Positions 10,597 to 64,000 are shown, numbered from the stretch's first letter. The stretch: DNA of 64,000 nt from Candidatus Moraniibacteriota bacterium (GCA_016699795.1 CP065011.1:755449-819448); one strand, 5' to 3'. The notes: generated by a model not told the origin, from the sequence alone. Program-made: numbers and translations.

Positions 10597-11367
10597 TTAT
10601 ACTTTCATTCCATATCCCTTGGAAAATAGATGGGCAAGAATTTGCCAAAGAGCGGCAATAAGTCCAATCATAACAAAAGAACTAAGATAGGGATCGGTTG
10701 TGGCAATTCCAAACATAGAAAATCGAAGACCATCGATCATATAATAGAGAGGATTAAAAAGAAGAATTTTTTGCCAATAAGAAGGAAGCATCTCAATAGA
10801 ATAAAAAATCCCCCCAGTAAAACTTAAAGGCATCACAATAAGAAGTGGAAAGAGGGAGAGTTGTTCGAAGTTTTTTGCCCAAATACCAACAAGAACTCCG
10901 AGAAGTGAAAAAATGAAAGCTGAAAGAAAAGAGAAAAAGAGAGCGAGAAAAGGATGTATAACAGAAATATCAACGAAGAATAATGCGGAAAAGTAAATAA
11001 GAAATCCTATAAAAAGAGCTCGAACGGTACCACCAAGAGCAAATCCTAGAATAATCTCTTTGTAGGTTATGGGGGTAGTAAGCATATCAATAATAGTTCC
11101 TGAGAATCGAGGGAAATAAATTCCACTTGATGAAGCGCTGAGAGCATTGGTTACTAATGCCATCATAATAAGTCCTGGAACGATGTACTGACCATATTCT
11201 AGGGAATTTTTCATGGAAAGACTTGTTCCTACAGTAGCTCCAAAAACAATAAAATAAAGGAAAGTGGAGAGAGTAGGGGAAATAATGGTCTGAAGAATGA
11301 CCTGGCGAGTTCTTTGAACTTCTCTATAAAAAATAGCTCCGAGTGCAATAAAATTAAGATATACCAT
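10597..11367 (-). CDS. ABC-2 type transporter permease
   Basis: 256 aa with 6 predicted TM helices, immediately downstream (minus strand) of an ABC ATPase. Confidence 0.75.
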   Translation of the reverse strand: MVYLNFIALGAIFYREVQRTRQVILQTIISPTLSTFLYFIVFGATVGTSLSMKNSLEYGQYIVPGLIMMALVTNALSASSSGIYFPRFSGTIIDMLTTPITYKEIILGFALGGTVRALFIGFLIYFSALFFVDISVIHPFLALFFSFLSAFIFSLLGVLVGIWAKNFEQLSLFPLLIVMPLSFTGGIFYSIEMLPSYWQKILLFNPLYYMIDGLRFSMFGIATTDPYLSSFVMIGLIAALWQILAHLFSKGYGMKV

Positions 11368-13872: not shown

Positions 13873-16863
13873 ATGCTGAATATTATATGTATGAAATATC
13901 AACCTCGAAAAATTGAGAAAAAATGGCAAAAATATTGGGAAGAAAAGAAGACATTCAAAGACTATTCGAAAAAAGAGAAATTTTACGCTTTGGATATGTT
14001 TCCCTATCCATCAGGATCAGGTCTTCACGTAGGACACCCTAAAGGATATATCGCAACAGATATTTCTGCGCGTTTTGAAATTTTACGAGGAAAGAGTGTT
14101 CTTCATCCGATGGGCTGGGATGCCTTTGGACTTCCCGCAGAAAATTATGCTATCAAAAACAAAATACATCCTAGTGTTGCGGTGAAAGAAAATATAAAAA
14201 AATTCAAAGAACAACTTCGAAAAATTGGATTTACGTATGATTGGGATCGAGAAATTAACACAACAGATCCAAAATATTATAGGTTCACGCAATGGATATT
14301 TCTTAAAATGTTTGAAAAAGGTCTTGCTTATGAATCCTATGAACCAATTAATTGGTGTCCAGGATGTAAGACAGGTTTGGCAAATGAGGATTTGGAAAAT
14401 GGATTGTGTGAACGGTGTGGATCTGAAATTGAACAAAAACCAATGCGTCAGTGGGTACTAAAGATGACGGAGTATGCCGATCGACTTCTTGAAGATTTGG
14501 ATATAAAAGATTTAGATTGGGAAAAATCCATTATAGATCAACAGAAAAATTGGATAGGTCGTTCAGAAGGAGTTGTTGTAAAATTCCCTCTTAGTATTGA
14601 GAAAGATGAAGCGACGAAGCAATCCAAAAAAAGTGCGTATGAAGAAGGAATTAATAGTCAAAAAAGTACCCATGATAAAAATTTTATCGAAGTCTTTACG
14701 ACGCGAGTAGATACTATTTTTGGATGTACCTATATCGTCGTTGCTCCGGAGCATCCTTTGATGAAATCTCTTTCTTCTTGTTCCTCTCGCAAAGAAAAAA
14801 CTTTAGAAATCTGTATTTCAAATTTGGATGAAGTAAAGCATTATATTGAACAAGCAAAGAAAAAAACGGTGATGCAAAGAACGGAGCTTGCCAAAGAAAA
14901 AACGGGAGTTGAGCTTAAAGGAGTGCGAGTAATAAATCCATTCAATGGAGAATCTGTCCCAGTGTTTGTTGCTGATTATGTATTAGGTTCTTATGGTACT
15001 GGTGCAGTTATGGCTGTTCCATCTCATGATGATCGGGATTTTGAATTTGCAAAAAAGTATAATCTTCCACTTCGTCAGTCGGTAGCTATTCTTTTTTCGG
15101 ATTTAGAGGGAAAGGATGCGGTTAGAAAGGATGCTGAAACTGTCCGTCGAAGAACAGCATTTGCTTTTTTAAAGCATTGGTCTGAAGATGCGTATCTTTG
15201 TCTTGATTGGGAGAAATTTGGCTGGCATTCAGGAATTATTGGAGGTGTTGAAGATAAAGAACAATTTTTAGATACAGCAAAACGTGAAATTATCGAAGAA
15301 ACAGGATATCAAAATCCAGAATTTGTTCGTTTTCTTGGAGGAGAAATACATACACATTTTTATGCGGCACATAAAGGAATAAATAGATATGCTGAAGGAA
15401 GGGGAATGGTATTTCAACTTAAAAATGATAAATGGAAATCGCCGAAAGAGGAAGAAACTTTGAATCATAAAGCTGTATGGATAACGGGCGATAAAATGAA
15501 AAGTTTTTTGAATCTCGAGAATTTTGAATATATGTGGGAGATTCTTTGTGGTAAAAAATCAGAATGTTTTACTGGAGAAGGAGTGCTGGTAGATTCAGGA
15601 GAATTCACGGGACTTTCTTCTCAAGAGGCGCGAGAAAAAATGACGAAATGGCTTGAGAAAAAAGAAAATGGAAAAAGAACGGTGAATTATAAAATGAGGG
15701 ATTGGGTTTTTTCTCGTCAAAGGTATTGGGGCGAGCCCATACCTATTATTCATTGTAAGCAATGTAGGGCTGTGGGAGTTCCTGAGGAACAATTGCCAGT
15801 TATACTGCCCGATGTGAACTCTTATGAACCTACAGGAACGGGAGAATCACCTCTTTCTGGGATTGAAAGTTGGGTTAATACCGTATGCCCCAAATGTGGT
15901 GGGCCAGCGAAACGTGAGACGAATACAATGCCTCAATGGGCGGGATCATCGTGGTACTATCTTTCTTATATTGTAAAAGTTGATTCTGAATTTCAATTCT
16001 CAAATTCTAGTCTTTATAGTCAATGGCTTCCTGTAGATCTTTATGTAGGGGGAGCAGAACATGCGACGAGACATCTTCTTTATGCTAGATTTTGGCATAA
16101 ATTTTTGTATGACATAGGAATAGTTCCTACGAAAGAGCCTTTCAAAAAATTAGTACATGTGGGGCTTATCAATGCTGCAGATGGTCGCAAAATGAGTAAA
16201 CGCTGGAATAATGTTATTAATCCTGACGATGTAGTGGCAGAATTTGGCGCCGATTCTTTGCGATTGTATGAAATGTTTATGGGGCCTTTTACACAAAAAA
16301 TTGCATGGAATACAGAAGGGGTGAGTGGTGTGAGAAGATTTCTTGAAAAAGTTTGGCGACTTGGAGAAAGAGTCTCGATAGATAATCAGCTTGTAATGAA
16401 AGATACGACTAAAAACTTGCTTCATAAAACTATTAAAAAAGTAACAGAAGATATTGAAAATTTTCGATTTAATACAGCGATAAGTTCCCTTATGATTCTT
16501 TCTCATGATATGGAAAAAGAAAAAGAACTTCCAGGTGAACTGTATAAAATTTTTCTCCTTCTTTTGTCTCCCTTTGCTCCTCATATAGCAGAAGAGCTTT
16601 GGGAAAAAATGGGACATAAAACATCTATTTTTCTTGAGTCATGGCCGGAATATAGCAAGGAAAATATACAGGATGCTTATAGCAATTTTGTTTTTCAAGT
16701 GAATGGAAAAACTCGAGATATACTTGTATTGAAGACAAATATTTCTGAAGAAGAAATTAAAAATAACGCACTTTCAAATCAGAAAGTACAAAAATTTATT
16801 GAAGGAAAAGAAATCCGAAAAATTATTTTTGTAAAAGGAAAATTGATAAATATTGTTGTGTGA
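13873..16863 (+). CDS. leuS: Leucyl-tRNA synthetase with an inserted Nudix-hydrolase domain
   Basis: HIGH motif HVGHPKGY and KMSKS motif KMSKRW. Editing-domain block GTGAVMAVPSHDDRDFEFAKKYNLPL. Catalytic-core blocks VNYKMRDWVFSRQRYWGEPIP and LYVGGAEHATRHLLYARFWHKF. Between editing and catalytic blocks (aa ~415-565, nt ~15115-15570) sits a perfect Nudix box GGVEDKEQFLDTAKREIIEETGY. The Met at 13891 may be the true start. Confidence 0.95.
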   Translation: MLNIICMKYQPRKIEKKWQKYWEEKKTFKDYSKKEKFYALDMFPYPSGSGLHVGHPKGYIATDISARFEILRGKSVLHPMGWDAFGLPAENYAIKNKIHPSVAVKENIKKFKEQLRKIGFTYDWDREINTTDPKYYRFTQWIFLKMFEKGLAYESYEPINWCPGCKTGLANEDLENGLCERCGSEIEQKPMRQWVLKMTEYADRLLEDLDIKDLDWEKSIIDQQKNWIGRSEGVVVKFPLSIEKDEATKQSKKSAYEEGINSQKSTHDKNFIEVFTTRVDTIFGCTYIVVAPEHPLMKSLSSCSSRKEKTLEICISNLDEVKHYIEQAKKKTVMQRTELAKEKTGVELKGVRVINPFNGESVPVFVADYVLGSYGTGAVMAVPSHDDRDFEFAKKYNLPLRQSVAILFSDLEGKDAVRKDAETVRRRTAFAFLKHWSEDAYLCLDWEKFGWHSGIIGGVEDKEQFLDTAKREIIEETGYQNPEFVRFLGGEIHTHFYAAHKGINRYAEGRGMVFQLKNDKWKSPKEEETLNHKAVWITGDKMKSFLNLENFEYMWEILCGKKSECFTGEGVLVDSGEFTGLSSQEAREKMTKWLEKKENGKRTVNYKMRDWVFSRQRYWGEPIPIIHCKQCRAVGVPEEQLPVILPDVNSYEPTGTGESPLSGIESWVNTVCPKCGGPAKRETNTMPQWAGSSWYYLSYIVKVDSEFQFSNSSLYSQWLPVDLYVGGAEHATRHLLYARFWHKFLYDIGIVPTKEPFKKLVHVGLINAADGRKMSKRWNNVINPDDVVAEFGADSLRLYEMFMGPFTQKIAWNTEGVSGVRRFLEKVWRLGERVSIDNQLVMKDTTKNLLHKTIKKVTEDIENFRFNTAISSLMILSHDMEKEKELPGELYKIFLLLLSPFAPHIAEELWEKMGHKTSIFLESWPEYSKENIQDAYSNFVFQVNGKTRDILVLKTNISEEEIKNNALSNQKVQKFIEGKEIRKIIFVKGKLINIVV

Positions 16864-17675: not shown

Positions 17676-18541
17676 ATGAATCCACTGAAAAAAACTTCAC
17701 TTTTCTGGGATGTAAATTGCCAAGAATTGGATGAAAATATCCATGGTGAATTTATTGTGTCTCGTATACTTTCCTTTGGAAATGAAGAAGATGTTTCTTG
17801 GATGATGAAAACATATACAAAAAAACAGCTCGAAGAAATTTTTCAAAAATACGAAAAAGTTCTCGATGAAAAATCGAGAAATTATTGGTTTATTTTCTTT
17901 ACAGTACATGGCTTATGTATCCCGAAACTATCAATCACCAAACAAAGTGCGTTTTCGAAAAGATAAAAGATATTCCTCTTTTGGAACGTTTTTATCTTGC
18001 TGGAGGAACAGCACTTGCTATAGAAATCGGACATCGTATTTCTGTGGATTTAGACTTTTTTTCATTACAGAGATTTGAGAGAGAAAAATTAAAAAAATAT
18101 CTTTCTCAAAAAGGATCTATGACTCTCGTTTCTGAAGATGAAGGAACACTTCATTGTATTCTAGATGGAGTGAAACTAAGTTTTTTGGAGTATCCTTACA
18201 AAATGCTTTTTGAATTCGTGGAATTTTCTGGGATAAAACTTGCAGATGAAAGAGATATTGCTTCGATGAAAATAGACGCTGTTTCTTCTCGAGGAAGTAA
18301 AAAAGATTTTATCGATATATATTTTCTCCTCAAAAAATATAAACTTTCCGAAATAATAGGATGCTTTGAGGAGAAATTTAGTGATATACAGTACAATACC
18401 ATCCATATATACAAAAGCTTAGTTTTTTTCGAAAATGCAGACCTTGAGCCTATGCCAGTTATGATCGTTCCCCTTGATTGGGAAGGGGTGAAAAAATATA
18501 TTACTCACGAAGTAATGAATATGCAGGAGAAGAGTCTTTAA
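17676..18541 (+). pseudogene. AbiEii/AbiGii-type nucleotidyltransferase (type IV TA toxin family) with an N-terminal extension; frame change near 17880-17900
   Basis: C-terminal part (frame of 17885-18541) has the family signature FYLAGGTALAIEIGHRISVDLDFF. The N-terminal 96-aa ORF (17676-17966, LFWDVNCQELDENIHGEFIVSRILSFGNEEDVSWMMKTY) ends inside a T-rich run (tggtttattttctttac). The downstream frame is open from 17870 with no ATG, so a single gene with one indel is the most economical reading. Confidence 0.55.
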
Positions 18542-18600: not shown

Positions 18601-18744
18601 CTTTTCTGTCTTTGTGAGGCTGTACTCAGTCGTGGCAAATCAGTCCGATCCGAGTCATTGCGAGGAGGAGTCTTCGCGTGAAGTGGCAATCCAGAGCTCA
18701 TTCCTCCCCCTGAGGAAAAGGGGGATTGAGGGGGATTTTCTTTT
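18601..18744 (+). repeat. Conserved intergenic element R1 (copy of R2 at 56505-56642)
   Basis: About 140 bp, nearly identical to 56505-56642 (core cagtccgat.cga.tcattgcgaggaggagtcttcgcgtgaagtggcaatccagagct.attcctcccccT.ag.aaaagggggattgagggggattttcttt). Contains a cccccT-N7-aggggg hairpin followed by a T-rich tail. Confidence 0.7.
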
Positions 18745-18853
18745 TCGTTTTTATGAGTGTGGTGAAGCAAACCAGGAATTTCGGATGGACCGCCACGTCG
18801 AGGACTCCTCGCGGATATGGAAAGAGGGGAAAAATGGATAATAGTCTTGACTT

Positions 18854-20026
18854 TTGTCCATTATGCTGTACTATAGTCTATATAAAGTATTAAGCCAAAA
18901 GAGTATGTACAGAAGGCAAATAGAGCGTATCAAAAAGGATCTTGAGAAAAAAATGGTTTTTATCGTGGGTCCTCGCCAGGTTGGAAAAACATGGCTTTCC
19001 AAAGAAATCGGCAAGAGCTTTGAACATGCAGTTTATCTCAATTATGATCGATCACAAGATCGTCAAATTATACAAAAAGAAATTTGGCCTCAGAAAACCG
19101 AACTCTTGATTTTTGATGAACTTCACAAAATGAAAGGATGGAAGACCTATCTTAAAGGTGTTTTTGATACAAAACCCGAACATTTAAAAATTTTAGTCAC
19201 AGGAAGTGCTCGGCTCAATACATTTCGTAAGGCTGGTGATTCGTTGGTTGGTCGGTTTTTTGTACATCAACTTCTTCCTTTTTCTCTTTCAGAGCTTAAA
19301 TATGCAAAAGTTTTCTTTGATATAGATCGATTTATTGTGCGGGGTGGTTTTCCAGAACCGTTTTTGGCCGAAAGTGATCAAGATGCTGATCGATGGAGGA
19401 ATCAATATGCTGATGGTTTGATAAGACAAGATATTTTAGATTTTGAAACCGTTCACAATTTTCGAGCTATACAAATGGTATTGGATTTACTTCGAGAAAA
19501 AGTCGGTTCACCTGTTTCATATCGTTCGATTGCTGAAGATGTGCAAATTTCTCCCACGACGGTTAAAAGATACATTGAAATTTTTGAGAGCCTCTCTATT
19601 GTTTTTAGAATTACCCCCTATTCAAAAAATATCGCACGCTCGATTTTGAAAGAACCAAAAATATATTTCTTTGATACGGGTATGGTTTCTGGAGATGATG
19701 GGGCAATGTTTGAAAATTTTGTAGCATTGAGTTTGTTTAAACATGTTTTGGGAAAAAGTGATGAAACGGGAAAGACATTTGATCTTCGATATCTCCGAAC
19801 CAAAGAAGGAAAAGAAGTTGACTTTGCTGTGACTGAAAATGGTAAAATTATTGAGATTGTTGAAGCGAAGTTAAAAGATGATGAATTAAATACTACATTG
19901 AAATACTTTTTCAAAAAATACGCACTTAAATCAGTCCAAGTGGTCAAAGAAATCAAAAGAGAAAAAACGATTGAGAATATAGAGATAGTATCGGCACGAA
20001 ACTATCTAAAAGACCTTTATTTATAA
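18854..20026 (+). CDS. AAA-family ATPase (AAA_14 plus DUF4143-type)
   Basis: Walker A VGPRQVGKTWL and Walker B LLIFDELH. Size ~390 aa and C-terminal region match the widespread AAA+DUF4143 ATPases. Stop lies 14 bp before the giant gene ORF. Confidence 0.8.
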   Translation: MSIMLYYSLYKVLSQKSMYRRQIERIKKDLEKKMVFIVGPRQVGKTWLSKEIGKSFEHAVYLNYDRSQDRQIIQKEIWPQKTELLIFDELHKMKGWKTYLKGVFDTKPEHLKILVTGSARLNTFRKAGDSLVGRFFVHQLLPFSLSELKYAKVFFDIDRFIVRGGFPEPFLAESDQDADRWRNQYADGLIRQDILDFETVHNFRAIQMVLDLLREKVGSPVSYRSIAEDVQISPTTVKRYIEIFESLSIVFRITPYSKNIARSILKEPKIYFFDTGMVSGDDGAMFENFVALSLFKHVLGKSDETGKTFDLRYLRTKEGKEVDFAVTENGKIIEIVEAKLKDDELNTTLKYFFKKYALKSVQVVKEIKREKTIENIEIVSARNYLKDLYL

Positions 20027-20040
20027 AAATAAATTCCTTC

Positions 20041-23000
20041 TTGTTCCAAAGGTGTTTCTGTGGTACTTTTAAGAGTGTTCTTCTCGATACTTCAAAAAGA
20101 AAAAAGATGCATGAAGCAACCATAAAAAGACAATCATTTTTTTCTTTTTCTCTCTCCCTCTTACTCGGATGTCTTGGAGCCTTTTTTTCTTTTTCTTCTC
20201 CTACTCATGCTTCCACTGTAACCTGGACAGGAACAACAAGCACTGCTTGGACTACAGTAACGAACTGGAATACAGGAACTGTTCCTACAAGCACAGATGA
20301 TGTTGTTATAAATTACACAGGAACGAATCAACCTACACTCGATGTAAATGGTGGAACCATTACTATACAATCTCTTACTCTTGGAGGAGGAGCATCAACT
20401 TCTACTCTTACTATGAGTAATGGGTATAGACTCGATGATATCAATAGAAAACTTCTTGTTACGGGAAATGTTACGATTCTTGATAAAGGATATCTTACGC
20501 ATACAGCAAACGGATCAGCGGAAACGCATAGACTTCTCATGAGTGTCGGAGGGAATCTCGATGTTCAAACTGGAGGACAGATTAATGTAGATGGGAAGGG
20601 GTATGCGGATGGATCAACTCCAAGCGGATCAAGAACGAGTGGTGTTGCAGGTGGAACTTATGGGGGAGTCGGGAGTAGTAGTGTTGTTGCAACATATGGT
20701 TCCATTAATCATCCTGTTAATATTGGAGGTGCTGGTTATTATAATAATGGAGGGATCGGTGGGGGATCGGTGGTTATATTCACAATTGGGAATATAATTA
20801 TAAATGGAAAAGTGACATCAAAAGGAATAACTGCTGGAGGTGCTGGTGGCTCAGTAAATATCTTAGGAGATTTCTTTTCTGGTTCCGGATCTGTTGAAGT
20901 AAATGGCTCATCTCTTGCTGGATATAATGGTGGTGGCGGTCGCATTGCCGTAAAACTCACCTCCGGAAATGATTTTGGATTCGTCACGATGCAAGCGTAT
21001 GGAGCCCCCGGAGCTGGCGCTGGAACCGTCTACACCGAGACTGCAAGTCAAGGATCCGGAAATGGAACGGTGATTATTGATAATAATAATGTTTCTTCTT
21101 CTGTATTTACCGCTATTCCTTCTACCCAAACTTGGACTATTAAAAATCTAATTGTAAAAAACAAAGGAAAAATCAGCGTTCCTACCGGGACCACTCTCAT
21201 ACTTGATAATCCCGATTCTGTAACCGGACTTTCTGGAGTCTCCGCAATAGAAAGTGGTATCGCTCTTCGAGGAGGAATTTTTGATCTTCCTCAGGGGTCT
21301 CTTACTATTGAAAACTGGGCGCTTATTGCAGATCTTCCTCATACGCTCAATGGAGATATTACGGTAAAATCCGGAGGGTATATGACGCATAGCGCTAACA
21401 CGAATACGGAAGCATACAAAATGAACCTTACAATTAATGGTAATCTCGATGTTCAAACCGGAGGACAGATTAATGTAGATAGGAAAGGGTATGGAACAGG
21501 ATATGGACCAGGATATTGTGGTGAAAGGGGTGCTTATGGAGGACAAAGTGAAAATGTAAGCTGTCTAACATACGGATCTATAATGAATCCTATAAATTTA
21601 GGATCTGATAGTGGAGGAGGTGCTGTTATTTTGAATATTTTTGGAGTAACTACCTTAAATGGTACTATTTCATCTAGTAGTTTTGATGCTTATAGAGGGT
21701 CTGGAGGAGGTGTAAATATTATCACTCATATTCTTAATGGATCAGGTTCAATTAAGACAACTGCAATGTCTCGTTCTGGTGGTGGACGAATTGCGGTAAA
21801 ACTTACTTCCGGAAATGACTTCGGATCCGTTGTTATGCAAGCGTATGGTGCAGCTGCCGGCACCATCTACACCGAAACCGCAAGTCAGGGCACGGGAAAC
21901 GGAGCAGTAACGATTGATAATAACAATCAAACTTCTTCCGTTTTCACTGCTATCCCCTCCACTCAAACATGGACCATTAAAAATCTAGTCGTAAAAAATA
22001 GAGGAAAAATCAGCGTTCCTACCGGGACCACTCTCATACTTGATAATCCCGATTCTGTAACCGGACTTTCTGGAGTCTCCGCAATAGAAAGTGGTATCGC
22101 TCTTCGAGGAGGAATTTTTGATCTTCCTCAGGGGTCTCTTACTATTGAAAACTGGGCGCTTATTGCAGATCTTCCTCATACGCTCAATGGAGATATTACG
22201 GTAAAATCCGGAGGGTATATGACGCATAGCGCTAACACGAATACGGAAGCATACAAAATGAACCTTACAATTAATGGTAATCTCGATGTTCAAATTGGAG
22301 GAAAGATTAATGTGGATGGGAGGGGATATGGGGCGGGGTATGGACCGGGAATTTGTAAATACAATAATACTTTTACTGCTTCATATGGAGGAAATAATAT
22401 AGTGGATTGTGGCGGATTTGTTTACGGATCTCTTTATAATCCAGTTAATTTAGGAACTGGAGGGAATAATAATTCAGGGGGGGGGATCTATTGTTTTGAA
22501 TGTTGCTGAATCAGTAATTATTTCTGGCTCAGTAACAGCAAATTCTGGATCTTCAAGTAATACAGGCACAGGAGGATCTATTAATATAATTACTGGAAGC
22601 ATAAGTGGTTCAGGATCTTTAAAGGCAAATATGATTTCTAATGCTGGCGGAAGCAGTGGTGGTCGCATCGCCGTTAAACTTACTTCAGGAAATGATTTTG
22701 GGTCGATTGTAATGCAGGTATTTGGAGGACCCTCAGGATGTGGAGCTTTTCCTTGTGGAACCGCAGCAGCCGGCACTATCTACACTGAAACTGCCTCTCA
22801 AGGCCCCAACAATGGCACCCTCACCATAGACAATAACAATCAAACAGCTACCGTCCAAACCCTCATCCCCCAAGACAACTTCACCAACAACTCCCTCTCC
22901 CTTGGAAACATCATTGTAAAAAACAAAGGACTTCTTGCCATTCCTACAGGAACCACTCTTAACACTACAGGAGACATAACCATAGGAACTCTTAACTCTT

Positions 23001-26000
23001 CTACTGACACCTCACACATAGTAGCCAATGGAACAGGAACTCTCATTTCTACCAATCTCACTATTCATGGAGTAAGTGGTACAGGAGCATCCATAAACAC
23101 CAACACGAAAGGTTACACTCCTACTCTTGGAACAGGAGCAGGAACAACAGGCTCTCTTGGATATGGATCAGGAGGAACATATGGAGGAAGAGGAGGAAAT
23201 AGTAGTGATGGAGCAACTTCCCCTAACACCTATGGAAATGACTTTGTTCCCGAAGATCTTGGAAGTGGAGGAGGAAAGTCTACAGGAGGAACAGGAGGAG
23301 GAGATATACGAATCAGAACGAATAACAATCTCAACCTCTATGGAACCATATCCAGTAACGGTAGCGCTGGACTCACCAATGGTGGAGGAGGATCAGGAGG
23401 ATCTATAAACATACTCTATGCAAAAAACTTCACCATAAACGGTGGAAAGCTTCAAGCCAATGGTGGGGCGGGACAAGGTGGTGGAGGAGGAGGGGGAGGA
23501 GGAAGAATCGCCTATGCCTATGAAAACAAAACATTTACCAATCAAACGATTCAAACACTCGGAGGAACAAAAGGAGCTACCGCACCTGCAACTGATGGAA
23601 GCGCAGGTTCACTTAAATCTGGATACCTTGCTGGTTCTCTTATCTCTTCAGCATTTGATTCCAGTAGTGATGCTAATGTCATGGGAACAATAGAATGGAA
23701 AGAAAATGAAATACTCCCAACAGGTTCTTCAGTAACTCTTTCTCTCAAAACTGCAGGAACGAAAGGAAATCTTTCTTCTTCCCCCTGGATACAAATAGCA
23801 CAATCTACTCCCTCTTCTCTTACTACACATTGTACAAAAAACAATACAACGGTAAGTTGCACAGCCAGTGCTATCCCTCAAGATATGAAAGATATCTTTG
23901 AAGATCGCTTCTTTCAATACAAAGTAGATCTTTCTTCTCCTGACCTTCTTTCTCAACCTCAAGTCGATGATGTAAAAGTAGGCTATGTTGTGAATGCTTT
24001 CCCTATGATTCAAAATGTAACCACTACTCCCAATACTGATAAAACAGTAACTATCACGTACGAAACAAAAGATGAAGATACCAATACCGGAACCAATACT
24101 CCAGGAATAGTTACTCCGAGCTTTGAATACTACAATGGAAGTAGTTGGATCAATATCGCTTCCAATACTCTAGCTCCCGAAGATATACAAAACAAAACAG
24201 TGAATCAAGATACGTACACAACACACAGTGCTACCTGGACTCCTTCTCTCGTAAGTGAATCTTTCTATCTTACCAATGCAAAAATCCGTGTAACCGTAAG
24301 TGACAATGAAGGAGCGAATAATATCGCACGAGCTGAATCAAATACCTTTACCCTCGATACAAAAACTCCCACCAATCCCTCCCTCCTTGTTGATGCTTCC
24401 ACTCAAGACCTCACCATTCCCTCCACCACATCTGTTCTTACTCTTGGAGTCAGTGATGACTCTCCAACACAGATGAAGATTTCTCTTGACGAAAACCTTA
24501 CCAACTCTCCTTGGGAACCTTTTAATGCAACGGTAACAATAAAACTCGAAACTGATCCCGACATTGTCTATACTCGCTTCAAAGATCAATACGGGAATGA
24601 AACACAAACCATACACACAACTACTCCAGAAACTCCTACACGAGTCATTTCTCAAGATACGAGTAATATGCTTCTTACCCCTCCAGAATACCGAGCCTTC
24701 GTAGGATTCAAAACAATAGAAGAACCTCCAACAGGATTCGGAAACTACAAACTCTATAGAAGTGATGACGCTACTACCTATACGCTTCAAAATATCATAA
24801 CCTCAAGAACAACAAACTTCCTTACTGATGCTACCCCACAACCAGACATTCTCTACACCTACAAAGCAAAGACAACAGACACACCAGGAAATGTTTCTTT
24901 CTTCTCACAAACCGTTACGATGAAAGCAAATGGTATTCAAGACTTCGGAGAAGGTGGAGGAGGATCAGATCAAACCCCTCCTGTTCTACAAAACGTAACC
25001 GTAGAATCTAAAGACACCACAACCGTAACTATCACATGGGAAACAGATGAACTCTCTGACTCTCGTGTAGAATATGCAACCACTCCCAACACCTATACCA
25101 AACAAACAGGAGTCTCTACCTATGCTGACACCCAAGCACAATCAGGACTTCATAGAGTCACTCTTACCAACCTCACACCAAACACTCCCTACTTCTTTAG
25201 AGTTGCCTCTACTGATCCTCAAGGCAATACCGGAGTCAATGACAATAATGGCAATGGATATGAAGTCACAACGAATCCTGGACCTTCTATCAGTGGTGTA
25301 GCGGTATCAAGTGCTTCTAACACACAAGCAACCATATTCTGGAATACGAATGTCCCTGCAGACTCTGTACTCCATTACAGTGAAAACAAGAATGGATCTC
25401 TTATCGATCCTATCACTCTCTCCGGATCAAGTGTTCTTACAAAAAATCATCAAGTAACCTTAGATGCTCTTACTCAAGGAACCACCTACTATTTCTACGT
25501 TACCTCCACCGACTCACAAGGAAACATTGCCAATGACAATAATGGAGGAAACTATTTTCAATTCTCTACAACACTCGACGAAACACCTCCTACCATAACG
25601 AATCTTCAAACATCTCTTATCTCAAATGACAAAGCAGTTATTACAGCAAACACAGATGAAGAAGCATCCTTCCTCCTTCAGTACAGAAAAAAAGGAAGCC
25701 TTACCTTCACACAAACAGAACAAGGAACAACATACGATAGATCTCACTACAGGGTACTCGATACTCTTACTCCTGATACAGAGTATGAATATCAAGTGAG
25801 TGTTAAAGATATCAATCAAAACGAATCACAGAGTGATATACAAACAATGAAAACAACCTTAGATCCAGAATACAATCATGCACCTCTTTCAAAGATTCAT
25901 ACTATCAGTGATCCTCCTAAAGTACTCACTGATCAAAAAGCAGTCATAACCTTCCAGACGGATCAAGCAGCAAACTGCATCCTTGAATATGGAACCCAAT

Positions 26001-27415
26001 CAAGAAACTACCAAGAAGTTCCTCAAACAGAAGCGACAGGAATCTATGACACACTCCATTCCCTGCATCTTGGAGGACTCATCTTTAACACAACCTACTT
26101 CTACAAACTTCTTTGTGAAGATAATCTTGGAACCCTCATAGAGAGTGAAGAAAAAAGCTTCACAACAAAACTCAAACAAGTAGACAGTGGAAGTGAACAA
26201 GCAGAATCTACTCCTCCCTCTATCTCAGGAGTCAAAGTCAAAGACATTACAGGAGAGAGTGCAGTGGTGAGTTGGGAGACGGATGAAGTTTCTGATAGTA
26301 GAGTAAAATATGGTACGACAAAAGACCTTGAATATGCCACAATTGATAGTATTACAGGTTTCGACCCCACCAAATACACCACCTCCCACTCCGTAACTCT
26401 TCGAGGTCTCATCCCATCTACTAAATACTTCTTCTCCACAGGATCTTCCGACACCGCCGGAAACATAGGCACCTCCTCCCAACAAACCTTCCAAACGCAA
26501 TCTCCTTCTTCCATCTCTTCCATTAAAGCTTCTTCCAAACAAATAGGGGAAACAACTATCACATGGAAAACTTCCACTCCCACTACCTCTATTGTTGAAT
26601 ATGGAAACACAGAAAACTATGGACAAACAAGAAAAAGTGAAGAACTCAAAAAAGATCATGAAATTATCATAAACAATCTTTTAGAAAACTCTACCTACCA
26701 CTTCCGAGTAAAAGGAGAAGATGAATCAAAAAATCTCTTCTCTTCTTCCGACTCTACCTTTGAACCAAAGTCTCCACCACAAATCAAAGAAATCAAGATA
26801 GAAGTTCTTTCAGACAGAGAAGCAAAAGTAAACTTCCTTACTGATACTCTTACCGACTCTCTTGTAACCTACAAAAACAAAAACAAAGAAGAAGATCAAA
26901 AGAGTGAAGGAAATCCCTCCCTCCTCCAAACTCACTCCCTCACCCTCAAAGAACTCACTCCTGGAGAAAACTACGTTCTTACTGTACGAGTCAGAGATGA
27001 TATGGGAAATGAAACTCTCTCTGATGAGATAGAATTCACTATGCAAAAAGATGAAACTTCTCCTACAGTAGAAAGAGTCTCTACCGACTCCGCTCTTTCA
27101 CAAAACGGAAAAGTACAAATGATTATTAACTGGCAAACAGATGAAGATGCTTCTTCCTCCCTCATCTACAAAGAAGGAAGAGCAGGAGAAGAAAAAACAG
27201 TGAATGTAAGTTCTTCCCCAACAAAGAATCACATCATTGTACTCACCTCTTGGAAACCAGGAACTCTCTACTCTTACAAAGTCATAGTAAAAGATCTGAG
27301 TGGGAATGAAACCATAACCAAAGACTACATCACCCTTACACCACAAACAAAAGAATCTGTTGTAGAACTCATCATAAAGAACTTCAAAGAAATCTTTGCT
27401 TGGACGGGAGGGTAG
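20041..27415 (+). CDS. Giant secreted surface protein, copy 1 (beta-helix-like Gly-rich module array plus ~10 FN3-like domains); interrupted by a 1-nt frameshift at a G9 tract
   Basis: ORFs 20041-22509 and 22496-27415 join into one ~2457-aa protein if one G is removed from the tract at 22477-22485 (gives ...NNNSGGGSIVLNVAESVIISGSV, matching sibling modules such as GGGAVILNIFGVTTLNG). Signal peptide follows the Met at 20107 (FFSFSLSLLLGCLGAFFSFSSPTHA). Contains ~280-aa tandem modules (GNLDVQTGGQINVD...GRIAVKLTSGNDFG...AGTIYTETASQG...TIDNNN) and repeated W-x-T-D...Y-G/Y-F-R-V FN3-like domains. Confidence 0.85.
21167..21478 (+). repeat. Intragenic ~312-bp near-perfect direct repeat (partner 22005-22316)
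   Basis: Encodes the identical ~104-aa stretch KISVPTGTTLILDNPDSVTGL...NLTINGNLDVQ in two successive modules of giant gene 1. The DNA is essentially identical. Confidence 0.8.
22477..22485 (+). repeat. G9 homopolymer at the frameshift site of giant gene 1
   Basis: Nine consecutive G at 22477-22485. Reading frame switches exactly here; G8 would give a continuous ORF. Confidence 0.85.
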
Positions 27416-27425
27416 GAGGGGAGAT
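24352..27425 (+). repeat. 3.06-kb block essentially identical to 60652-63726 (3' halves of the two giant genes)
   Basis: Translations are identical over ~1020 aa from LDTKTPTNPSLLVDASTQDL to the stop and a few bp beyond. The one exception is an ~80-bp divergent patch at 26290-26370 / 62590-62670. Confidence 0.9.
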
Positions 27426-27652
27426 TTATAAGGAAGAGGGATCTTTTGACTCATACGGTCGAAAAGAGAGAGGAAAATTTATTTATCTTGATTTTTAGCA
27501 AGGTATATTTCTTAAGGGGACGAAGAGAATTTTTCTCGATTGTACACCACATACTCTTGACAAAAATAAAAAATATCAGTAAATTTTGTTTTACTTGAAG
27601 AGAAAATTTCAAGGTATTTTTCAGTTCTTTCCTAAAATAGAGAGGTTGTTCT

Positions 27653-45702: not shown

Positions 45703-45734
45703 AGGAACATTACTTTGAAATGTTCCTTTTTTTG
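45703..45734 (+). terminator. Bidirectional rho-independent terminator between convergent rpoC and the lipoprotein gene
   Basis: aggaacat-tactttgaa-atgttcct, an 8-bp stem, flanked by an A-run upstream and a T7 run downstream. Confidence 0.7.
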
Positions 45735-45775
45735 ATTTGTCCTCCTTATGTTTAAGGGAGATCGGGGGTGGCGGG

Positions 45776-46132
45776 TTAACGCCAATGTCTCCTGTCGTCA
45801 TCACGATAATGGCGAGGAGGTTTGTTGTGCCTCCTATCATCATCACGATGATGGCGGGGTGGAGGCGGCGGCCTTCTGTCATACCTGTCATCATGGTGGT
45901 AATGACGAGGTGGAGGAGGTGGGGGCCGTCTATGATGACGATGATCATCATAATAGACAATGTGACGAGGAGGCGAAACCCTCCTATACCTACTGTCGAT
46001 TACTGCCTGTCCCAATGCGGTGCCGATGGCGGATCCAATGAGGGCTCCGCCAAAAGATGCCTCTCCTTCGGGTGTTGATACACACCCACCAAGAAGGATA
46101 AGGGATAAGAATACAACAAGCACGATCTTCAT
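45776..46132 (-). CDS. Lipoprotein with a glycine-zipper segment and a His/Pro/Arg/Asp-rich low-complexity C-terminal region
   Basis: Start at Met31 of the 148-aa ORF (MKIVLVVFLSLILLGGC, lipobox LLGGC) with GGAGAG spacing before the ATG. GGALIGSAIGTALG glycine zipper. Tail repeats HRRPPPPPPRHYHHDDRYDRRPPPPPRHHRDDDRRH. Confidence 0.65.
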   Translation of the reverse strand: MKIVLVVFLSLILLGGCVSTPEGEASFGGALIGSAIGTALGQAVIDSRYRRVSPPRHIVYYDDHRHHRRPPPPPPRHYHHDDRYDRRPPPPPRHHRDDDRRHNKPPRHYRDDDRRHWR

Positions 46133-46358
46133 GGTAATCTCTCTCCGTTGTTGTAAGAAAAGAACTAAACGTAATATATCTATACACCATTTTATCATTT
46201 TTGTCAATAGTTTAAAATTCAAAGTGATGGAATGTTCGGTACTATTTTGTTGAAAAGGAAGAAGGGGGTATAATGGGATTTGTTACTAATTTTCATTTTC
46301 TTCTGCAATTTTCGAATTTTCACTGCAAATTGGATGAAAATTTCATTTACGAAAAGGG

Positions 46359-55891: not shown

Positions 55892-56494
55892 ATGGGAAAA
55901 AATGAAAATGCTCAAGAAAAAGACGAATTAAATAATAGTAGCGATAAAGATCTTGTTTTGCAAATCCGAAAAGGAAATGAAAAATATTTTAATGATCTCC
56001 TTGGTCGTTACCGAGAAAAATTGTTTTTTTACCTTAGGCATTTTGTGGGGGGGAAAGAAGAGGCGGAAGATCTTTTGCAAAATGTTTTTGTAAAAGCATA
56101 TGAAAAATTTTCAAGTTTTGATCAAGAAAGGCAATTCTCTTCTTGGATTTATAGAATTGCTCACAATGAAGCAGTAAATTATCTTAAGAGAAGAAGTCAA
56201 AAAATATTTCTTTCTTGGGAAGATATTGTAACTGCCAAAGATCGATTAGAATCTTCGAGTAAGGAACGATCAGCTCAAGAAGAATGGATTCGCAAAGAAG
56301 TTCGTGATGATGTTCGGCTTGCTCTAGAAAGATTGAATGAAAAGTATAGAGAAATATTGATACTGCGATTTTATTTGGATCATTCGTATGAAGAGATAGC
56401 AAAGATTATTGATAGACCAACAAATACCGTAGGAACACTCATTAGTCGAGCAAAAAAAAGACTTCTTCGAGAGATGAATACTTTAGTAAAATAA
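55892..56494 (+). CDS. ECF sigma factor, paralog of the 7664-8305 gene
   Basis: Region 2 DLLQNVFVKAYEKFSSFD...FSSWIYRIAHNEA. Region 4 SYEEIAKIIDRPTNTVGTLISRAKKRLLREM. Confidence 0.85.
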   Translation: MGKNENAQEKDELNNSSDKDLVLQIRKGNEKYFNDLLGRYREKLFFYLRHFVGGKEEAEDLLQNVFVKAYEKFSSFDQERQFSSWIYRIAHNEAVNYLKRRSQKIFLSWEDIVTAKDRLESSSKERSAQEEWIRKEVRDDVRLALERLNEKYREILILRFYLDHSYEEIAKIIDRPTNTVGTLISRAKKRLLREMNTLVK

Positions 56495-56504
56495 AAAAGT
56501 TTTC

Positions 56505-56642
56505 TCTTTTCCGTCTTTGTAAGTGTAGCGAAGCAATCCAGTCCGATTCGAATCATTGCGAGGAGGAGTCTTCGCGTGAAGTGGCAATCCAGAGCTAATT
56601 CCTCCCCCTTAGAAAAAGGGGGATTGAGGGGGATTTTCTTTG
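56505..56642 (+). repeat. Conserved intergenic element R2 (copy of R1)
   Basis: Near-identical to 18601-18744. Followed to ~56700 by a tail (ccccctcgaagactcgggtactccc) complementary to the core gagtcttcg segment. Confidence 0.7.
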
Positions 56643-56813
56643 TATGAAATTCTTTTGTGAAATCAATACAAATCCCTCCCCCTCGAAGACTCGGGTACTC
56701 CCTTTTAGCAAAGGGAGAGAAGATATAAAAAAAGTGAAAAAACTCAATTTCCAAAAAAATAAAAAAATGATACTATAGAAATGTTATGAATAAAAAATAG
56801 AAGAAAAACAAAT

Positions 56814-59800
56814 GTGAAGAATGACTTTAAAAAAGAATTTTTCTTTCACTTTTCCCTTCCTTTTCTTTTTGGAATTCTTTGTGTTTTCTTTTTTTCTTTT
56901 TCTTCTCCTACTCATGCTTCCACTGTAACCTGGACAGGAACAACAAGCACTGCTTGGACTACAGTAACGAACTGGAATACAGGAACTGTTCCTACAAGCA
57001 CAGATGATGTTGTTATAAATTACACAGGAACGAATCAACCTACACTCGATGTAAATGGTGGAACCATTACTATACAATCTCTTACTCTTGGAGGAGGAGC
57101 ATCAACTTCTACTCTTACTATGAGTAATGGGTACAACGGAAATGATACAAACAAAAAATTGAATGTTACAGGAAATGTTACGATTCTCAACAATGGTTAC
57201 CTTACCCACACCGCAAACACTACTACAGAAACCCATAGACTCTTTATGGATATCGGAGGGAATCTCGATGTTCAGACAGGAGGGCAGATTAATGTGGATG
57301 TTAAAGGATATAGTAGTGGACCAGGAAATGGGGGCTGTTCAAGTCAAGGCGCTTCTTATGGTGGACAAGGTGGCTGTGGTTCTACTTTTATCGATACTTA
57401 TGGGTCAATCTCTGATCCCGTAAATATAGGAAGCGGAGGCGCTGGCAATGGGACGCTTGGCGGGGGTTCTACTGTTCTTGAAGTTGTCGGAGAAACAACG
57501 ATTAATGGGATTGTTGCTTCTAGTAGTATTTCATCTGCAAATCGGTGTGGCTCAGGAGGAACTATCTCTTTAAAAACAGGTTCACTTAACGGCTCTGGTC
57601 TTATTCGTGCGGATGGAGTAGTAGCTTCATATGGGACTTCGCAGGGAATTGGGGGGGGTGGTCGTATTGCTATAAAGCTCACGTCTAGTAATAATTTTGG
57701 ATCTGTTATGATGCGGGCATATGGTTATGGTGGTGCAGCAGCCGGTACCATCTACACTGAAACGGCAAGTCAAAGAGAGGGGAATGGAACGGTAATTATT
57801 GATAATAACAATCAAAATTCTTCCGTTTTTACCGCTATTCCCGCAACACAAACATGGACGATTAAAAATCTTGTCCTAAAAAACAAAGGACAAATCAGTG
57901 TACCAACAGGAACGACGTTGGATATTAGTAATGTAACAATTACCACAACAGACGCCACTCCCATAAGTGGAATAATGGTAAATGGTGGAACTTTTATCCC
58001 TCCATTAAATACCCATTCTTTTTCTCTTCCTCTTTTTTACAATTTTTACGCTCCCTATACCATCACTGGAGATCTTACTCTCGGTGGAGGATCAGCTCAG
58101 ACACAACTTATTATTACCAACGGATCCCCAACAAACAAATTCACTGTTACCGGAAATGTTACGATTCTCAATAATGGTTATCTTACTCATACCAGTGACT
58201 ATTCTTCCGAGACCCATCGTCTTTTTATGGACATAGGAGGAAACCTTGACATTCAAACCGGAGGACAAATTAATGCTGATGATAAGGGATATGGTAGTGG
58301 TCCGGGTTATGGAGGAACAAATCCATATTGTGGATCTTATGGTGGTCAAGCCCTTCCTTTGGGCGTTACTTATGGGTCTATTACTTCACCAGTTAACTAT
58401 GGCAGTGGTGGGGGAACAAATGTGTATGGTGGTGGGTCTATTCAATTAACAGTTTCAAGAAATACAAATATAGCAGGAATTGTTAGTTCAAGCTCAACTG
58501 TTTATAACGGATCTCGATCGGGGTCAGGCGGATCTGTTAATATTATTACAGAAACTCTTTCTGGTTCGGGAAGTATAATTACCAAAGGGGCTCAATCTCC
58601 TTGTGGTGCAGGTGGACGTATTGCTGTCAAACTTACCTCTGGAAACGATTTCGGATTAGTAACAATGCAATCATTTGGAGTGGGTGGAGCTGCCGGAACC
58701 ATCTACACTGAAACTGTCTCTCAAGGCCCCAACAATGGCACCCTCACCATAGACAACAACAACATTTCCACTTCAGCCCAAACCCTCATCCCCCAAGACA
58801 ACTTCACCAACAACTCCCTCTCTCTCGGAAACATCATTGTAAAAAACAAAGGACTTCTTGCCATTCCTACAGGAACCACTCTTAACACTACAGGAGACAT
58901 AACCATAGGAACTCTTAACTCTTCTACTGACACCTCACACATAGTAGCCAATGGAACAGGAACTCTCATTTCTACCAATCTCACTATTCATGGAGTAAGT
59001 GGTACAGGAGCATCCATAAACACCAACACGAAAGGTTACACTCCTACTCTTGGAACAGGAGCAGGAACAACAGGCTCTCTTGGATATGGATCAGGAGGAA
59101 CATATGGAGGAAGAGGAGGAAATAGTAGTGATGGAGCAACTTCCCCTAACACCTATGGAAATGACTTTGTTCCCGAAGATCTTGGAAGTGGAGGAGGAAA
59201 GTCTACAGGAGGAACAGGAGGAGGAGATATACGAATCAGAACGAATAACAATCTCAACCTCTATGGAACCATATCCAGTAACGGTAGCGCTGGACTCACC
59301 AATGGTGGAGGAGGATCAGGAGGATCTATAAACATACTCTATGCAAAAAACTTCACCATAAACGGTGGAAAGCTTCAAGCCAATGGTGGGGCGGGACAAG
59401 GTGGTGGAGGAGGAGGGGGAGGAGGAAGAATCGCCTATGCCTATGAAAACAAAACATTTACCAATCAAACGATTCAAACACTCGGAGGAACAAAAGGAGC
59501 TACCGCACCTGCAACTGATGGAAGCGCAGGTTCACTTAAATCTGGATACCTTGCTGGTTCTCTTATCTCTTCAGCATTTGATTCCAGTAGTGATGCTAAT
59601 GTCATGGGAACAATAGAATGGAAAGAAAATGAAATACTCCCAGCAAATACAACCGTAACCATCTCTCTCAAAACTGCAGGAACGAAAGAAAATCTTTCTT
59701 CTTCCCCCTGGACACAACTTGCACAGTCCACTGCTTCTTCTCTTACCTCAGGATGTACAAAGAATGGAATCAATGTTATCTGCTCTCTTTCTTCTATCCC

Positions 59801-63716: not shown

Positions 63717-63726
63717 GAGGGGAGAG
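60652..63726 (+). repeat. 3.06-kb block identical to 24352-27425
   Basis: See partner feature. The longest exact repeat in the window, co-oriented and 36 kb apart. Confidence 0.9.
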
Positions 63727-63735
63727 ATTTATTGC

Positions 63736-63815
63736 CTTTTTGTCTTTGTGAGCAGTGATTCCTCCTCCTTCTTCTTCTTCTTCTTATCTTTTCGATCGAT
63801 GAGTCTTCGAGGAAT
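63736..63815 (+). repeat. Degenerate R-element-like sequence downstream of giant gene 2, with a (CTT)n microsatellite
   Basis: Shares the 5' tgtctttgtgag 12-mer and gagtcttcgagg / attcctcctcc motifs with R1/R2. Contains ccttcttcttcttcttctt. Confidence 0.35.
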
Positions 63816-64000
63816 GGAGATTTGACCCGCCTTTGGTGGAAAACTTTCTTAACTCATATTCATAAAAGAAGAAAAGAAATTTTCAAAAAGATCTTATCTA
63901 GAGTATAAAGAAAGAATATTCTTAAATATCTTTTGAAAAAGTTTAGAGAAGCAGATTGTGTATGGAGTATAGATATTCAGCTATTATTTTGGGAAAGAAA

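Follow-up and report, generated by a model that had tools for sequence, protein, structure and literature searches.

The closest described relatives of the element treated here are the CGTC-tagged repetitive extragenic palindromes (REPs), a superfamily reported by Di Nocera, De Gregorio & Rocco (2013, BMC Genomics 14:522; PMC3733652). According to that paper, these units have an unpaired CGTC (or TGTC/CCTC) head, a stem that opens with A-T pairs and a CCA tail, and are predominantly arranged as inverted dimers; most spacers are 20-100 bp long, and small stem-loops are found in some. Their hosts are mainly Alphaproteobacteria, together with Chlorobi, Bacteroidetes, Spirochaetes and Thermotogae, and the members include Neisseria dRS3 and Rickettsia RPE-4 and RPE-6. 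Families 1 to 4 have a compact stem of 8-9 bp with a loop of 4-5 nt, a Bradyrhizobium type with a different loop is mentioned, intragenic copies in tRNA synthetase genes are reported, and the superfamily is presented there as lacking a dedicated transposase. In this study, we analyzed a stretch of 64,000 nucleotides (the window) from a Candidatus Moraniibacteriota bacterium (GCA_016699795.1 CP065011.1:755449-819448), in which two intergenic blocks, R1 (18601-18744) and R2 (56505-56642), had been taken by a sequence-only reading for a structured RNA element linked to two giant genes. We find instead that R1 and R2 are very probably composite blocks of REP-type palindromic units, which belong in or near the CGTC-tagged superfamily.

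The minus-strand translations of the blocks (…LDCFATL…, …LLLAMI… and …TPPRNDS…) resembled what we take to be a common spurious-ORF (open reading frame) motif, and the GTDB representative genomes were therefore scanned with the pattern CATTGCGAGGAG-N(5-25)-GCAATCCAG, which R1 and R2 both fit with an 18-nt gap. This pattern was found at no fewer than 120 GTDB loci, compared to about 6 estimated by chance, and the matches listed include Bradyrhizobium, sphingomonads, Rickettsia, Micavibrio, Bacteroidia, Verrucomicrobiota and Spirochaetes. Among the 196 units in the matches listed, from GTDB and from 66 IMG/VR contigs (see below), the head is CGTC in 164 (84%) and TGTC in 21, and 146 (74%) are followed downstream by an inverted partner, with the tails pointing inward and a median spacer of 18 nt. 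Most often, the partner arm reads CGTC ATTGC GAG CGAAGC GAA GCAAT CCAG. A hidden Markov model (HMM) was built solely from such partner arms, i.e. from sequences that the pattern had not selected, and its three best matches in the window lie at 56526-56541 (E=0.004), 18654-18694 (E=0.05) and 56553-56592 (E=0.14). The same model also matches two related Moranbacteria contigs, L202 and L204, with E-values of 2e-4 to 6e-3.

Between an unpaired (C/T)GTC head and an unpaired CCAG tail, each unit has a closing stem of 5 bp (ATTGC/GCAAT or a co-varying equivalent), which encloses a purine-rich GAG...GAA/GTG internal loop and a variable inner segment, in many cases a hairpin in itself. The window units are 30-42 nt long, and those of relatives reach 70 nt. 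Expressed as a grammar (head, 5-nt stem, GAG, insert, GAA/GTG, 5-nt stem, tail, with at most one unpaired stem position), this architecture retrieves 5 units in the window, all of them within R1/R2 (mean 0.04 in shuffled sequences), and 7 units in L202/L204; none occurs in contigs L001, L011 and L200. The features of the two blocks, and of a third site (R3) located after the second giant gene, are as follows.

18607..18643, plus strand: unit a1, TGTC/TTTGT/GAG/GCTGTACTCAGTC/GTG/GCAAA/TCAG; fits the grammar, with all 5 positions of the closing stem TTTGT/GCAAA paired (one G-U), and is included in the covariation alignment A3 described below.

18653..18694, plus strand: unit b1, AGTC/ATTGC/GAG/GAGGAGTCTTCGCGTGAA/GTG/GCAAT/CCAG; fits the grammar as well as the scan pattern (CATTGCGAGGAG-N18-GCAATCCAG), and contains the hairpin GCGAGGA-GGAG-TCTTCGC that had earlier been noted as a "core".

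18705..18725, plus strand: spacer stem-loop TCCCCCT-GAGGAAA-AGGGGGA, present in both the minimum free energy (MFE) and the centroid folds; common to R2, with another loop.

18728..18745, plus strand: second G-run GAGGGGGA followed by T-run TTTTCTTTTT, identical between R1 and R2.

18746..18775, plus strand: unit c1, a degenerate short form of 30 nt, CGTT/TTTAT/GAG/TGTGGT/GAA/GCAAA/CCAG; fits the grammar, has a weak partner-arm HMM match at 18760-18775 and a counterpart at 10744-10758 of L204.

18785..18819, minus strand: unit d1, inverted, CATA/TCCGC/GAG/GAGTCCTCGAC/GTG/GCGGT/CCAT; its stem carries compensatory changes, and it resembles both the minus-strand unit at 10768-10814 of L204 (CGTC TCCGC GAG ... 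GTG GCGGT CCAG) and the partner arm of L036 (GGTC ATCGC GAGGAG...GACGTG GCGAT CCAT).

56512..56541, plus strand: unit a2, a canonical 30-nt form, CGTC/TTTGT/AAG/TGTAGC/GAA/GCAAT/CCAG; fits the grammar and gives the best HMM match of the window.

56551..56592, plus strand: unit b2, AATC/ATTGC/GAG/GAGGAGTCTTCGCGTGAA/GTG/GCAAT/CCAG; fits the grammar and corresponds to the third HMM match.

56603..56623, plus strand: R2 spacer stem-loop TCCCCCTT-AGAAA-AAGGGGGA, seen in the folds.

56624..56686, plus strand: long inverted repeat specific to R2, TTGAGGGGGA...TTTGTAT / ATACAAA...TCCCCCTCGA, which dominates the MFE fold.

56681..56696, minus strand: CCTCGAAGACTCGGGT (minus strand ...CCCGAGTCTTCGAGG...), a decayed unit-like fragment, in which GAGTCTTCGAG equals the inner segment of the minus-strand L202 unit at 10955-10991.

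63741..63752, plus strand: 5' unit fragment of R3, TGTC/TTTGT/GAG, followed by CAGTGATTCCTCC; an 18-nt match with 2 mismatches.

63799..63824, plus strand: decayed unit-like piece GATGAGTCTTCGAGGAATGGAGATTTG in R3, similar to the L202 inner segment TGAGTCTTCGAGCGAA; its positions 63801-63812 are a 12-nt exact match, on the opposite strand, to 56681-56692 in R2.

R1 thus comprises four units in the order a1-b1-[stem-loop, G/T runs]-c1-d1 (inverted). R2 holds two units, a2-b2, and the same stem-loop and runs, after which come its private inverted repeat and decayed fragments. The near-identity of the two blocks claimed by the sequence-only reading is borne out, as MAFFT, a repeat finder and blastn agree on 94-95% identity over 103-109 nt (18635/18641-18743 versus 56533/56539-56641). 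Their GC content is about 50%, compared to about 32% for the genome, and the window contains just two copies of the 33-nt core GCGAGGAGGAGTCTTCGCGTGAAGTGGCAATCC (0 expected). At the 5' end, the motif CTTTTCTGTCTTTGTGAG of R1 has the counterpart CTTTTCCGTCTTTGTAAG in R2; CTTTTCTGTCTTTGTGAG is found again, each time with 2 mismatches, at 56506 and 63735 (0.26 expected by chance at ≤3 mismatches). What had been noted earlier as a "leader" motif corresponds, in units a1 and a2, to the head together with the 5' stem. A degenerate third version after giant gene 2 had also been proposed. It exists insofar as R3, a unit stump plus a decayed piece, contains the 18-nt 5' motif with 2 mismatches, ATTCCTCC and the 12-nt GAGTCTTCGAGG, with the common sequence confined to these. 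R3 looks like R1 with most of units a and b deleted, which hints at an insertion or deletion of these units.

Covariation was examined in A3, which comprises 12 Moranbacteria and 4 canonical units. In this alignment, 91% of the closing-stem cells are paired (14-69% in slid controls), two pairs switch from U-A to C-G (in 3 and 4 sequences) without any broken cell, and the covariation score was reached by 0 of 500 shuffles. Likewise, ATCGC/GCGAT occurs seven times among 83 unselected partner arms, versus one broken ATCGC/GCAAT. The predicted hairpin within each unit is therefore genuinely supported by covariation, and its stem opens with complementary A-T pairs as the stems of CGTC REPs do. The inner segments are swapped among unrelated small hairpins, such as GTGTTAT-TCCG-ATAACAC, AATTCAT-TCCG-ATGAATT and GTCCC-TTGA-GGGAC.

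Beyond the A-T/T-A stem opening, the units share with the published CGTC REPs a (C/T)GTC head, a CCA(G) tail and a length of about 30-40 nt. The head is CGTC in a2, TGTC in a1, CGTT in c1, and CGTC or TGTC in 6 of the 7 L202/L204 units. Among the 13 units of the window and L202/L204, the tail is CCAG in 9, CCAT in 2, CCGG in 1 and TCAG in 1. The inverted dimers have outward CGTC ends, and spacer stem-loops are present: c1 and d1 form a tails-inward dimer with a 9-nt spacer, and b1 and d1 form one whose 90-nt spacer holds the CCCCCT stem-loop. As in the published superfamily, the units are placed shortly after ORFs in unidirectional gene pairs (distance to the preceding stop codon: 65 nt for a1, 17 nt for a2, 24 nt for R3, and 30 and 25 nt in L202), and they have no associated transposase; no Y1_Tnp, RAYT or other transposase domain was found in window ORFs of at least 150 aa. 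The canonical units also occur in a range of hosts (Bradyrhizobium, sphingomonads, Rickettsia, Micavibrio, Bacteroidia and Spirochaetes) that mirrors the published one.

Several observations weigh against this assignment. The units found here differ in their body, which is unlike the compact stem described for CGTC families 1-4: instead of 8-9 bp and a loop of 4-5 nt, they have a 5-bp closing stem, the GAG...GAA/GTG purine loop and an inner segment of 6-46 nt with a variable hairpin. The heads of b1 (AGTC), b2 (AATC) and d1 (CATA) are degenerate, the HMM E-values of the window units are individually marginal (0.004-0.14), and A3 was assembled by hand. Only six units, plus fragments, are visible in 64 kb, at 3 sites; the related contigs add 4 further sites. 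A scan for consensus intrinsic terminators found none in R1 or R2. Finally, the R-specific 21-mer TTGCGAGGAGGAGTCTTCGCG has no exact match in the GTDB representatives, and neither the 25-mer GAGTCTTCGCGTGAAGTGGCAATCC nor the junction CAGTCCGATNCGANTCATTGCGAGG has one in the JGI metagenomes; the composite block may therefore be private to this lineage, whereas its units are not.

The host, a Candidatus Moranbacteria/Moraniibacteriota bacterium by its best protein matches and hence a member of the Patescibacteria/Candidate Phyla Radiation (CPR), lies outside the five phyla listed for CGTC REPs, and the four-unit mosaic of R1 differs from the simple dimers reported for them. The unit body departs from the four described families, and may represent a further CGTC family or the "different loop" type of Bradyrhizobium. 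A full-text literature search with the unit sequences returned unrelated primer matches only, and the literature search yielded no paper reporting REPs in Patescibacteria.

Canonical units also occur in viral or proviral contigs. The scan pattern occurs in 66 IMG/VR contigs (L134-L199), which hold canonical CGTC...CCAG units, in some contigs two, either in phage DNA proper or in host flanks; the d1-type pattern had 0 matches in the viral contigs.

Two other classes of palindromic repeats were compared. GTAG REPs and REPINs with their RAYT (Nunvar 2010; Bertels & Rainey 2011), as well as the bacterial interspersed mosaic elements (BIMEs) of E. coli, are likewise short imperfect palindromes with a conserved unpaired tetranucleotide. 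They form inverted doublets able to fold into one long or two small hairpins and intergenic mosaic clusters downstream of genes, and roles in mRNA 3'-end protection and termination have been proposed for them. The tag, however, is CGTC-like here and GTAG in the REPIN/RAYT system, and REPIN-RAYT pairs are lineage-specific, whereas the CGTC-type sequence is conserved across phyla. The second class is that of the Neisseria intergenic mosaic elements (NIMEs), in which RS units are flanked by dRS3. NIMEs are similarly mosaic arrays made from CGTC-1-type inverted repeats; R1 and R2 differ from them in having no regular RS/dRS3 alternation and far fewer units.

The units also account for most of the evidence on which a structured RNA had been proposed. 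The CCCCCT hairpin is indeed present in both copies (18705-18725 and 56603-56623) with differing loops, but it is weak as structural evidence: 2 of the 5 differences over the 103 aligned nt are loop positions, for which a binomial estimate gives p ~0.04, not strong for two copies. The pairing between the core and a downstream partner was confirmed in copy 1, in which GTCGAGGACTCCTCGCGG (18797-18814) is complementary to the core and paired in the MFE fold. In copy 2, complementarity exists over only 9 nt (GAGTCTTCG / CGAAGACTC, 56684-92), is rivalled by a stronger pairing between the G-run and a C-run, and the partner string lies at 56681-56696 rather than at 56676-56692. The copy-1 partner is the inverted unit d1, in which GCGAGGAG represents, on the opposite strand, the 5' part that all units conserve. 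Core and partner are complementary because they are homologous units in opposite orientation, and the partners, being inverted or decayed copies of the repeat unit, thus provide no evidence of independent compensatory evolution. The claim of compensatory long-range pairing is therefore not supported.

Folding and RNA family searches had been suggested as checks. The fold of R1 has a modest z-score of -2.1 and that of the whole of R2 one of -3.9, and the sub-parts range from -0.5 to +0.9, except for the R2 extension (56593-56700) at -2.9. Rfam covariance models gave 0 matches in the window at the gathering threshold; for R1 at E up to 10, even the best sub-threshold matches were implausible, with E no lower than 0.12, and canonical loci from other phyla yielded none besides tRNAs. 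A terminator, an insulator or a miniature inverted-repeat transposable element (MITE)-like site had been offered as fallbacks, and these come near to what the evidence supports. With regard to the terminator, Rho-independent terminators share with the blocks one or more GC-rich hairpins followed by a T-rich run (GGGGGATTTTCTTTTT) soon after upstream stop codons, but here the T-run is not adjacent to a simple hairpin and about 100 nt of repeat units precede the hairpin. A simple intrinsic terminator, with the U-tract 0-2 nt from the stem, was rejected on the negative scan of R1 and R2. The segments 18728-18745 and 18700-18736 could form a terminator-like compound hairpin followed by a U-tract, and a compound bulged hairpin abutting the U-run is seen in the R2 fold. 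This terminator likeness is one of possible working, not of membership.

We consider it extremely unlikely that the region is an independent small RNA gene or a small protein gene. A 75-aa ORF does span R1 and the region is structured, but neither R1 nor R2 has a promoter-like site immediately upstream, and the reading frame is broken in R2. A HMMER search with the ORF against 1.84 billion representatives returned 4 spurious matches to low-complexity or repeat proteins, i.e. no genuine homologues, in agreement with the earlier judgement that it is non-coding. With a concatenated translation of all six frames as protein query, no match was obtained among the best 8000 candidates, a weak negative.

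A further explanation is that the element is a cis-regulatory leader or structured RNA for the giant surface-protein genes, as both copies lie on the sense strand, 5' of the giant loci, are GC-rich, and fold better as whole regions than shuffled sequences. The gene context argues otherwise. R1 follows an AbiEii-like ORF (17885-18541) and is followed by a gene for an AAA_14/DUF4143 ATPase (18854-20026; probable start ATG 18906), which has its own promoter-like site, TTGACT-16-TACTAT at 18847-18874; giant gene 1 starts at 20041, 1.3 kb away from R1. R2 lies between an extracytoplasmic function (ECF) sigma factor gene (55892-56494) and giant gene 2 (56814-63716), and a -10-like TGATACTAT is read at 56768-56776, downstream of the block. 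Thus, the claim that the element sits upstream of both giant loci is loose: R2 precedes giant gene 2, but giant gene 1 is separated from R1 by the ATPase gene. As noted above, the pairing partners are inverted homologous units, Rfam gave no match, and the sub-element folds are mostly unremarkable.

Related genomes point the same way. The closest relatives (sigma factors 87% and 76% identical) keep the VanW-HSP20-ValRS-TsaD-sigma synteny and have, downstream of the sigma gene, neither a unit nor a giant gene. In more distant relatives, units follow ABC ATPase, ribonucleotide reductase (RNR) large-subunit and sigma genes, with no giant gene at these sites, which separate RNR subunit genes, separate ABC-transporter genes or follow a sigma gene. 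For example, L202 contains dimers at 15716-15849 and 10843-10991, 25-30 nt past the stop codons of the ABC ATPase and RNR large-subunit genes, and L204 has GAAGCAATCCAGGATTTCGAACTGGACCGCCACGTC...TCCTCGCGGA downstream of its sigma gene, which nearly equals c1-d1 of R1. Further copies without a preference for giant genes, named in advance as the mark of a plain repeat, are hence found at the family level. The leader explanation is largely refuted and, in our view, very unlikely, and the link of the R blocks to the giant surface-protein genes looks incidental.

How the two blocks came to be similar is a separate matter. They might be passive remnants of a segmental duplication that included the block and a giant gene, with later rearrangement, including the arrival of the ATPase gene, separating R1 from its gene. 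We regard this as possible though on balance doubtful; it concerns the origin of the copies and does not conflict with the units being REPs. The giant genes are paralogous, with 75-99% mosaic identity, and the 94-95% identity of R1 and R2 falls within the range of their 5' parts (90-94%). Moreover, both blocks lie 5' of the giant genes in matching orientation, and it is the whole a-b-stem-loop block, not single units, that they have in common. On the other hand, the homology is interrupted: 18744-20180 and 56642-56887 do not align, the homology of the genes beginning inside the coding region (20179/56886). In addition, the ATPase gene lacks the duplicated flanks by which an insertion could be recognized, and the units of relatives occupy many unrelated intergenic sites.

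The mosaic identity of the giant genes looks like gene conversion, and this bears on another explanation, in which the blocks are a NIME-like recombination substrate promoting gene conversion or rearrangement between the paralogues and thus driving surface variation. NIMEs often adjoin surface-protein genes, and dRS3/NIME arrays have been proposed to favour recombination near such genes. In the window, REP pieces lie 5' of both giant loci, and the R3 stump is located 16 nt past the 3' end of the duplicated segment (63725). Di Nocera et al. (2013; PMC3733652) equate Neisseria dRS3 with CGTC-1. However, giant gene 1 is followed by no unit (27416-27652), the 5' limit of the homology falls within the gene, some 245 nt past R2, and the units of relatives flank housekeeping genes. 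This possibility appears quite unlikely to us.

Returning to the REP assignment, the a-b-stem-loop block would have been copied as one piece, either with the giant-gene duplication or by REP-type dispersal. Because no transposase is known for CGTC REPs, we infer that the units would spread via a trans-acting enzyme or by recombination. If transcribed, the block would form part of the 3' untranslated region of the upstream gene, where the stack of hairpins, together with the GGGGGATTTTCTTTTT run, would act as a terminator-like barrier to 3' exonucleases or read-through. It would lie upstream of the promoter-like motifs of the downstream genes and not in their leaders. Should the units be actively maintained in Moranbacteria, the trans-acting factor would have to be one of the very few genes that these minimal genomes share with the other hosts. 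A secondary reading would have the clusters act as NIME-like recombination sites that drive variation of the giant surface proteins. We consider these readings unlikely.

The REP assignment, if correct, would extend the CGTC-tagged class to the CPR with a version that has a short closing stem and a swappable inner hairpin; head, closing stem and tail are kept from Alphaproteobacteria to a CPR genome of roughly 1 Mb. Reduced CPR genomes with units could narrow the search for the transposase or binding protein of CGTC REPs, and, if the units are actively maintained there, their occurrence in the CPR would be a lever for identifying the trans-acting factor. The assignment would also explain recurrent spurious small ORFs (peptides ...HCEE...AIQ, ...LLAM... 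and ...PRND...), and it removes a false lead, as there is no dedicated riboregulator of giant surface-protein genes here.

Some further observations concern the genes of the window, which include rpoB/C, recA, ftsK, leuS and valS. A common -10-like string, TACTATAG, occurs downstream of R1 (18869-18876) and R2 (56771-56778), preceded by a TTGACT -35-like hexamer in the former and by a TG extension in the latter; these sites may be the promoters of the ATPase gene and of giant gene 2. The giant genes (20041-27424 and 56814-63725) contain internal repeats of ~840-980 nt at 75-88% identity, and the identity between the paralogues is 99% for 24350-27424 / 60651-63725, 94% for 22765-23998 / 58688-59921 and 90% for 20181-20593 / 56888-57300. 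Giant locus 1 is split into two ORFs overlapping by 14 nt (22496-22509), and locus 2 is one ORF of 2300 aa. The N-terminus of the giant protein has two homologues with 57-58% identity on a 1.19-Mb Moraniibacteriota contig, and the nearest public homologues of the protein (Moraniibacteriota IPN70) are about 800 aa long.

Downstream of the TsaD-ECF sigma pair, the relatives L001, L011, L200, L202 and L204 carry various cargo, including a glycosyltransferase cluster, a tRNA plus AI-2E transporter, and an FBP aldolase, and the present genome carries giant gene 2 (56495-63716). The site thus looks to be a hotspot of variable insertion. A GC-rich island (45733-46121) was evaluated as a possible REP array and rejected, as it corresponds to a small lipoprotein-like ORF. 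The most GC-rich stretch of the window (45776-46133, minus strand; up to 64%) has a signal/lipobox-like N-terminus, a glycine-zipper and PPPPPRH/DDR repeats, and is neither a repeat array nor an RNA gene. In the coding region of the leucyl-tRNA synthetase (LeuRS), CGACGAAGCAATCCA (14612-14626) matches the 3' half of a REP unit (HMM E=0.25), probably by chance. The LeuRS ORF itself (13873-16863, 996 aa) has a NUDIX match at residues 451-499 (E 9e-7), an unusual insertion for this enzyme.

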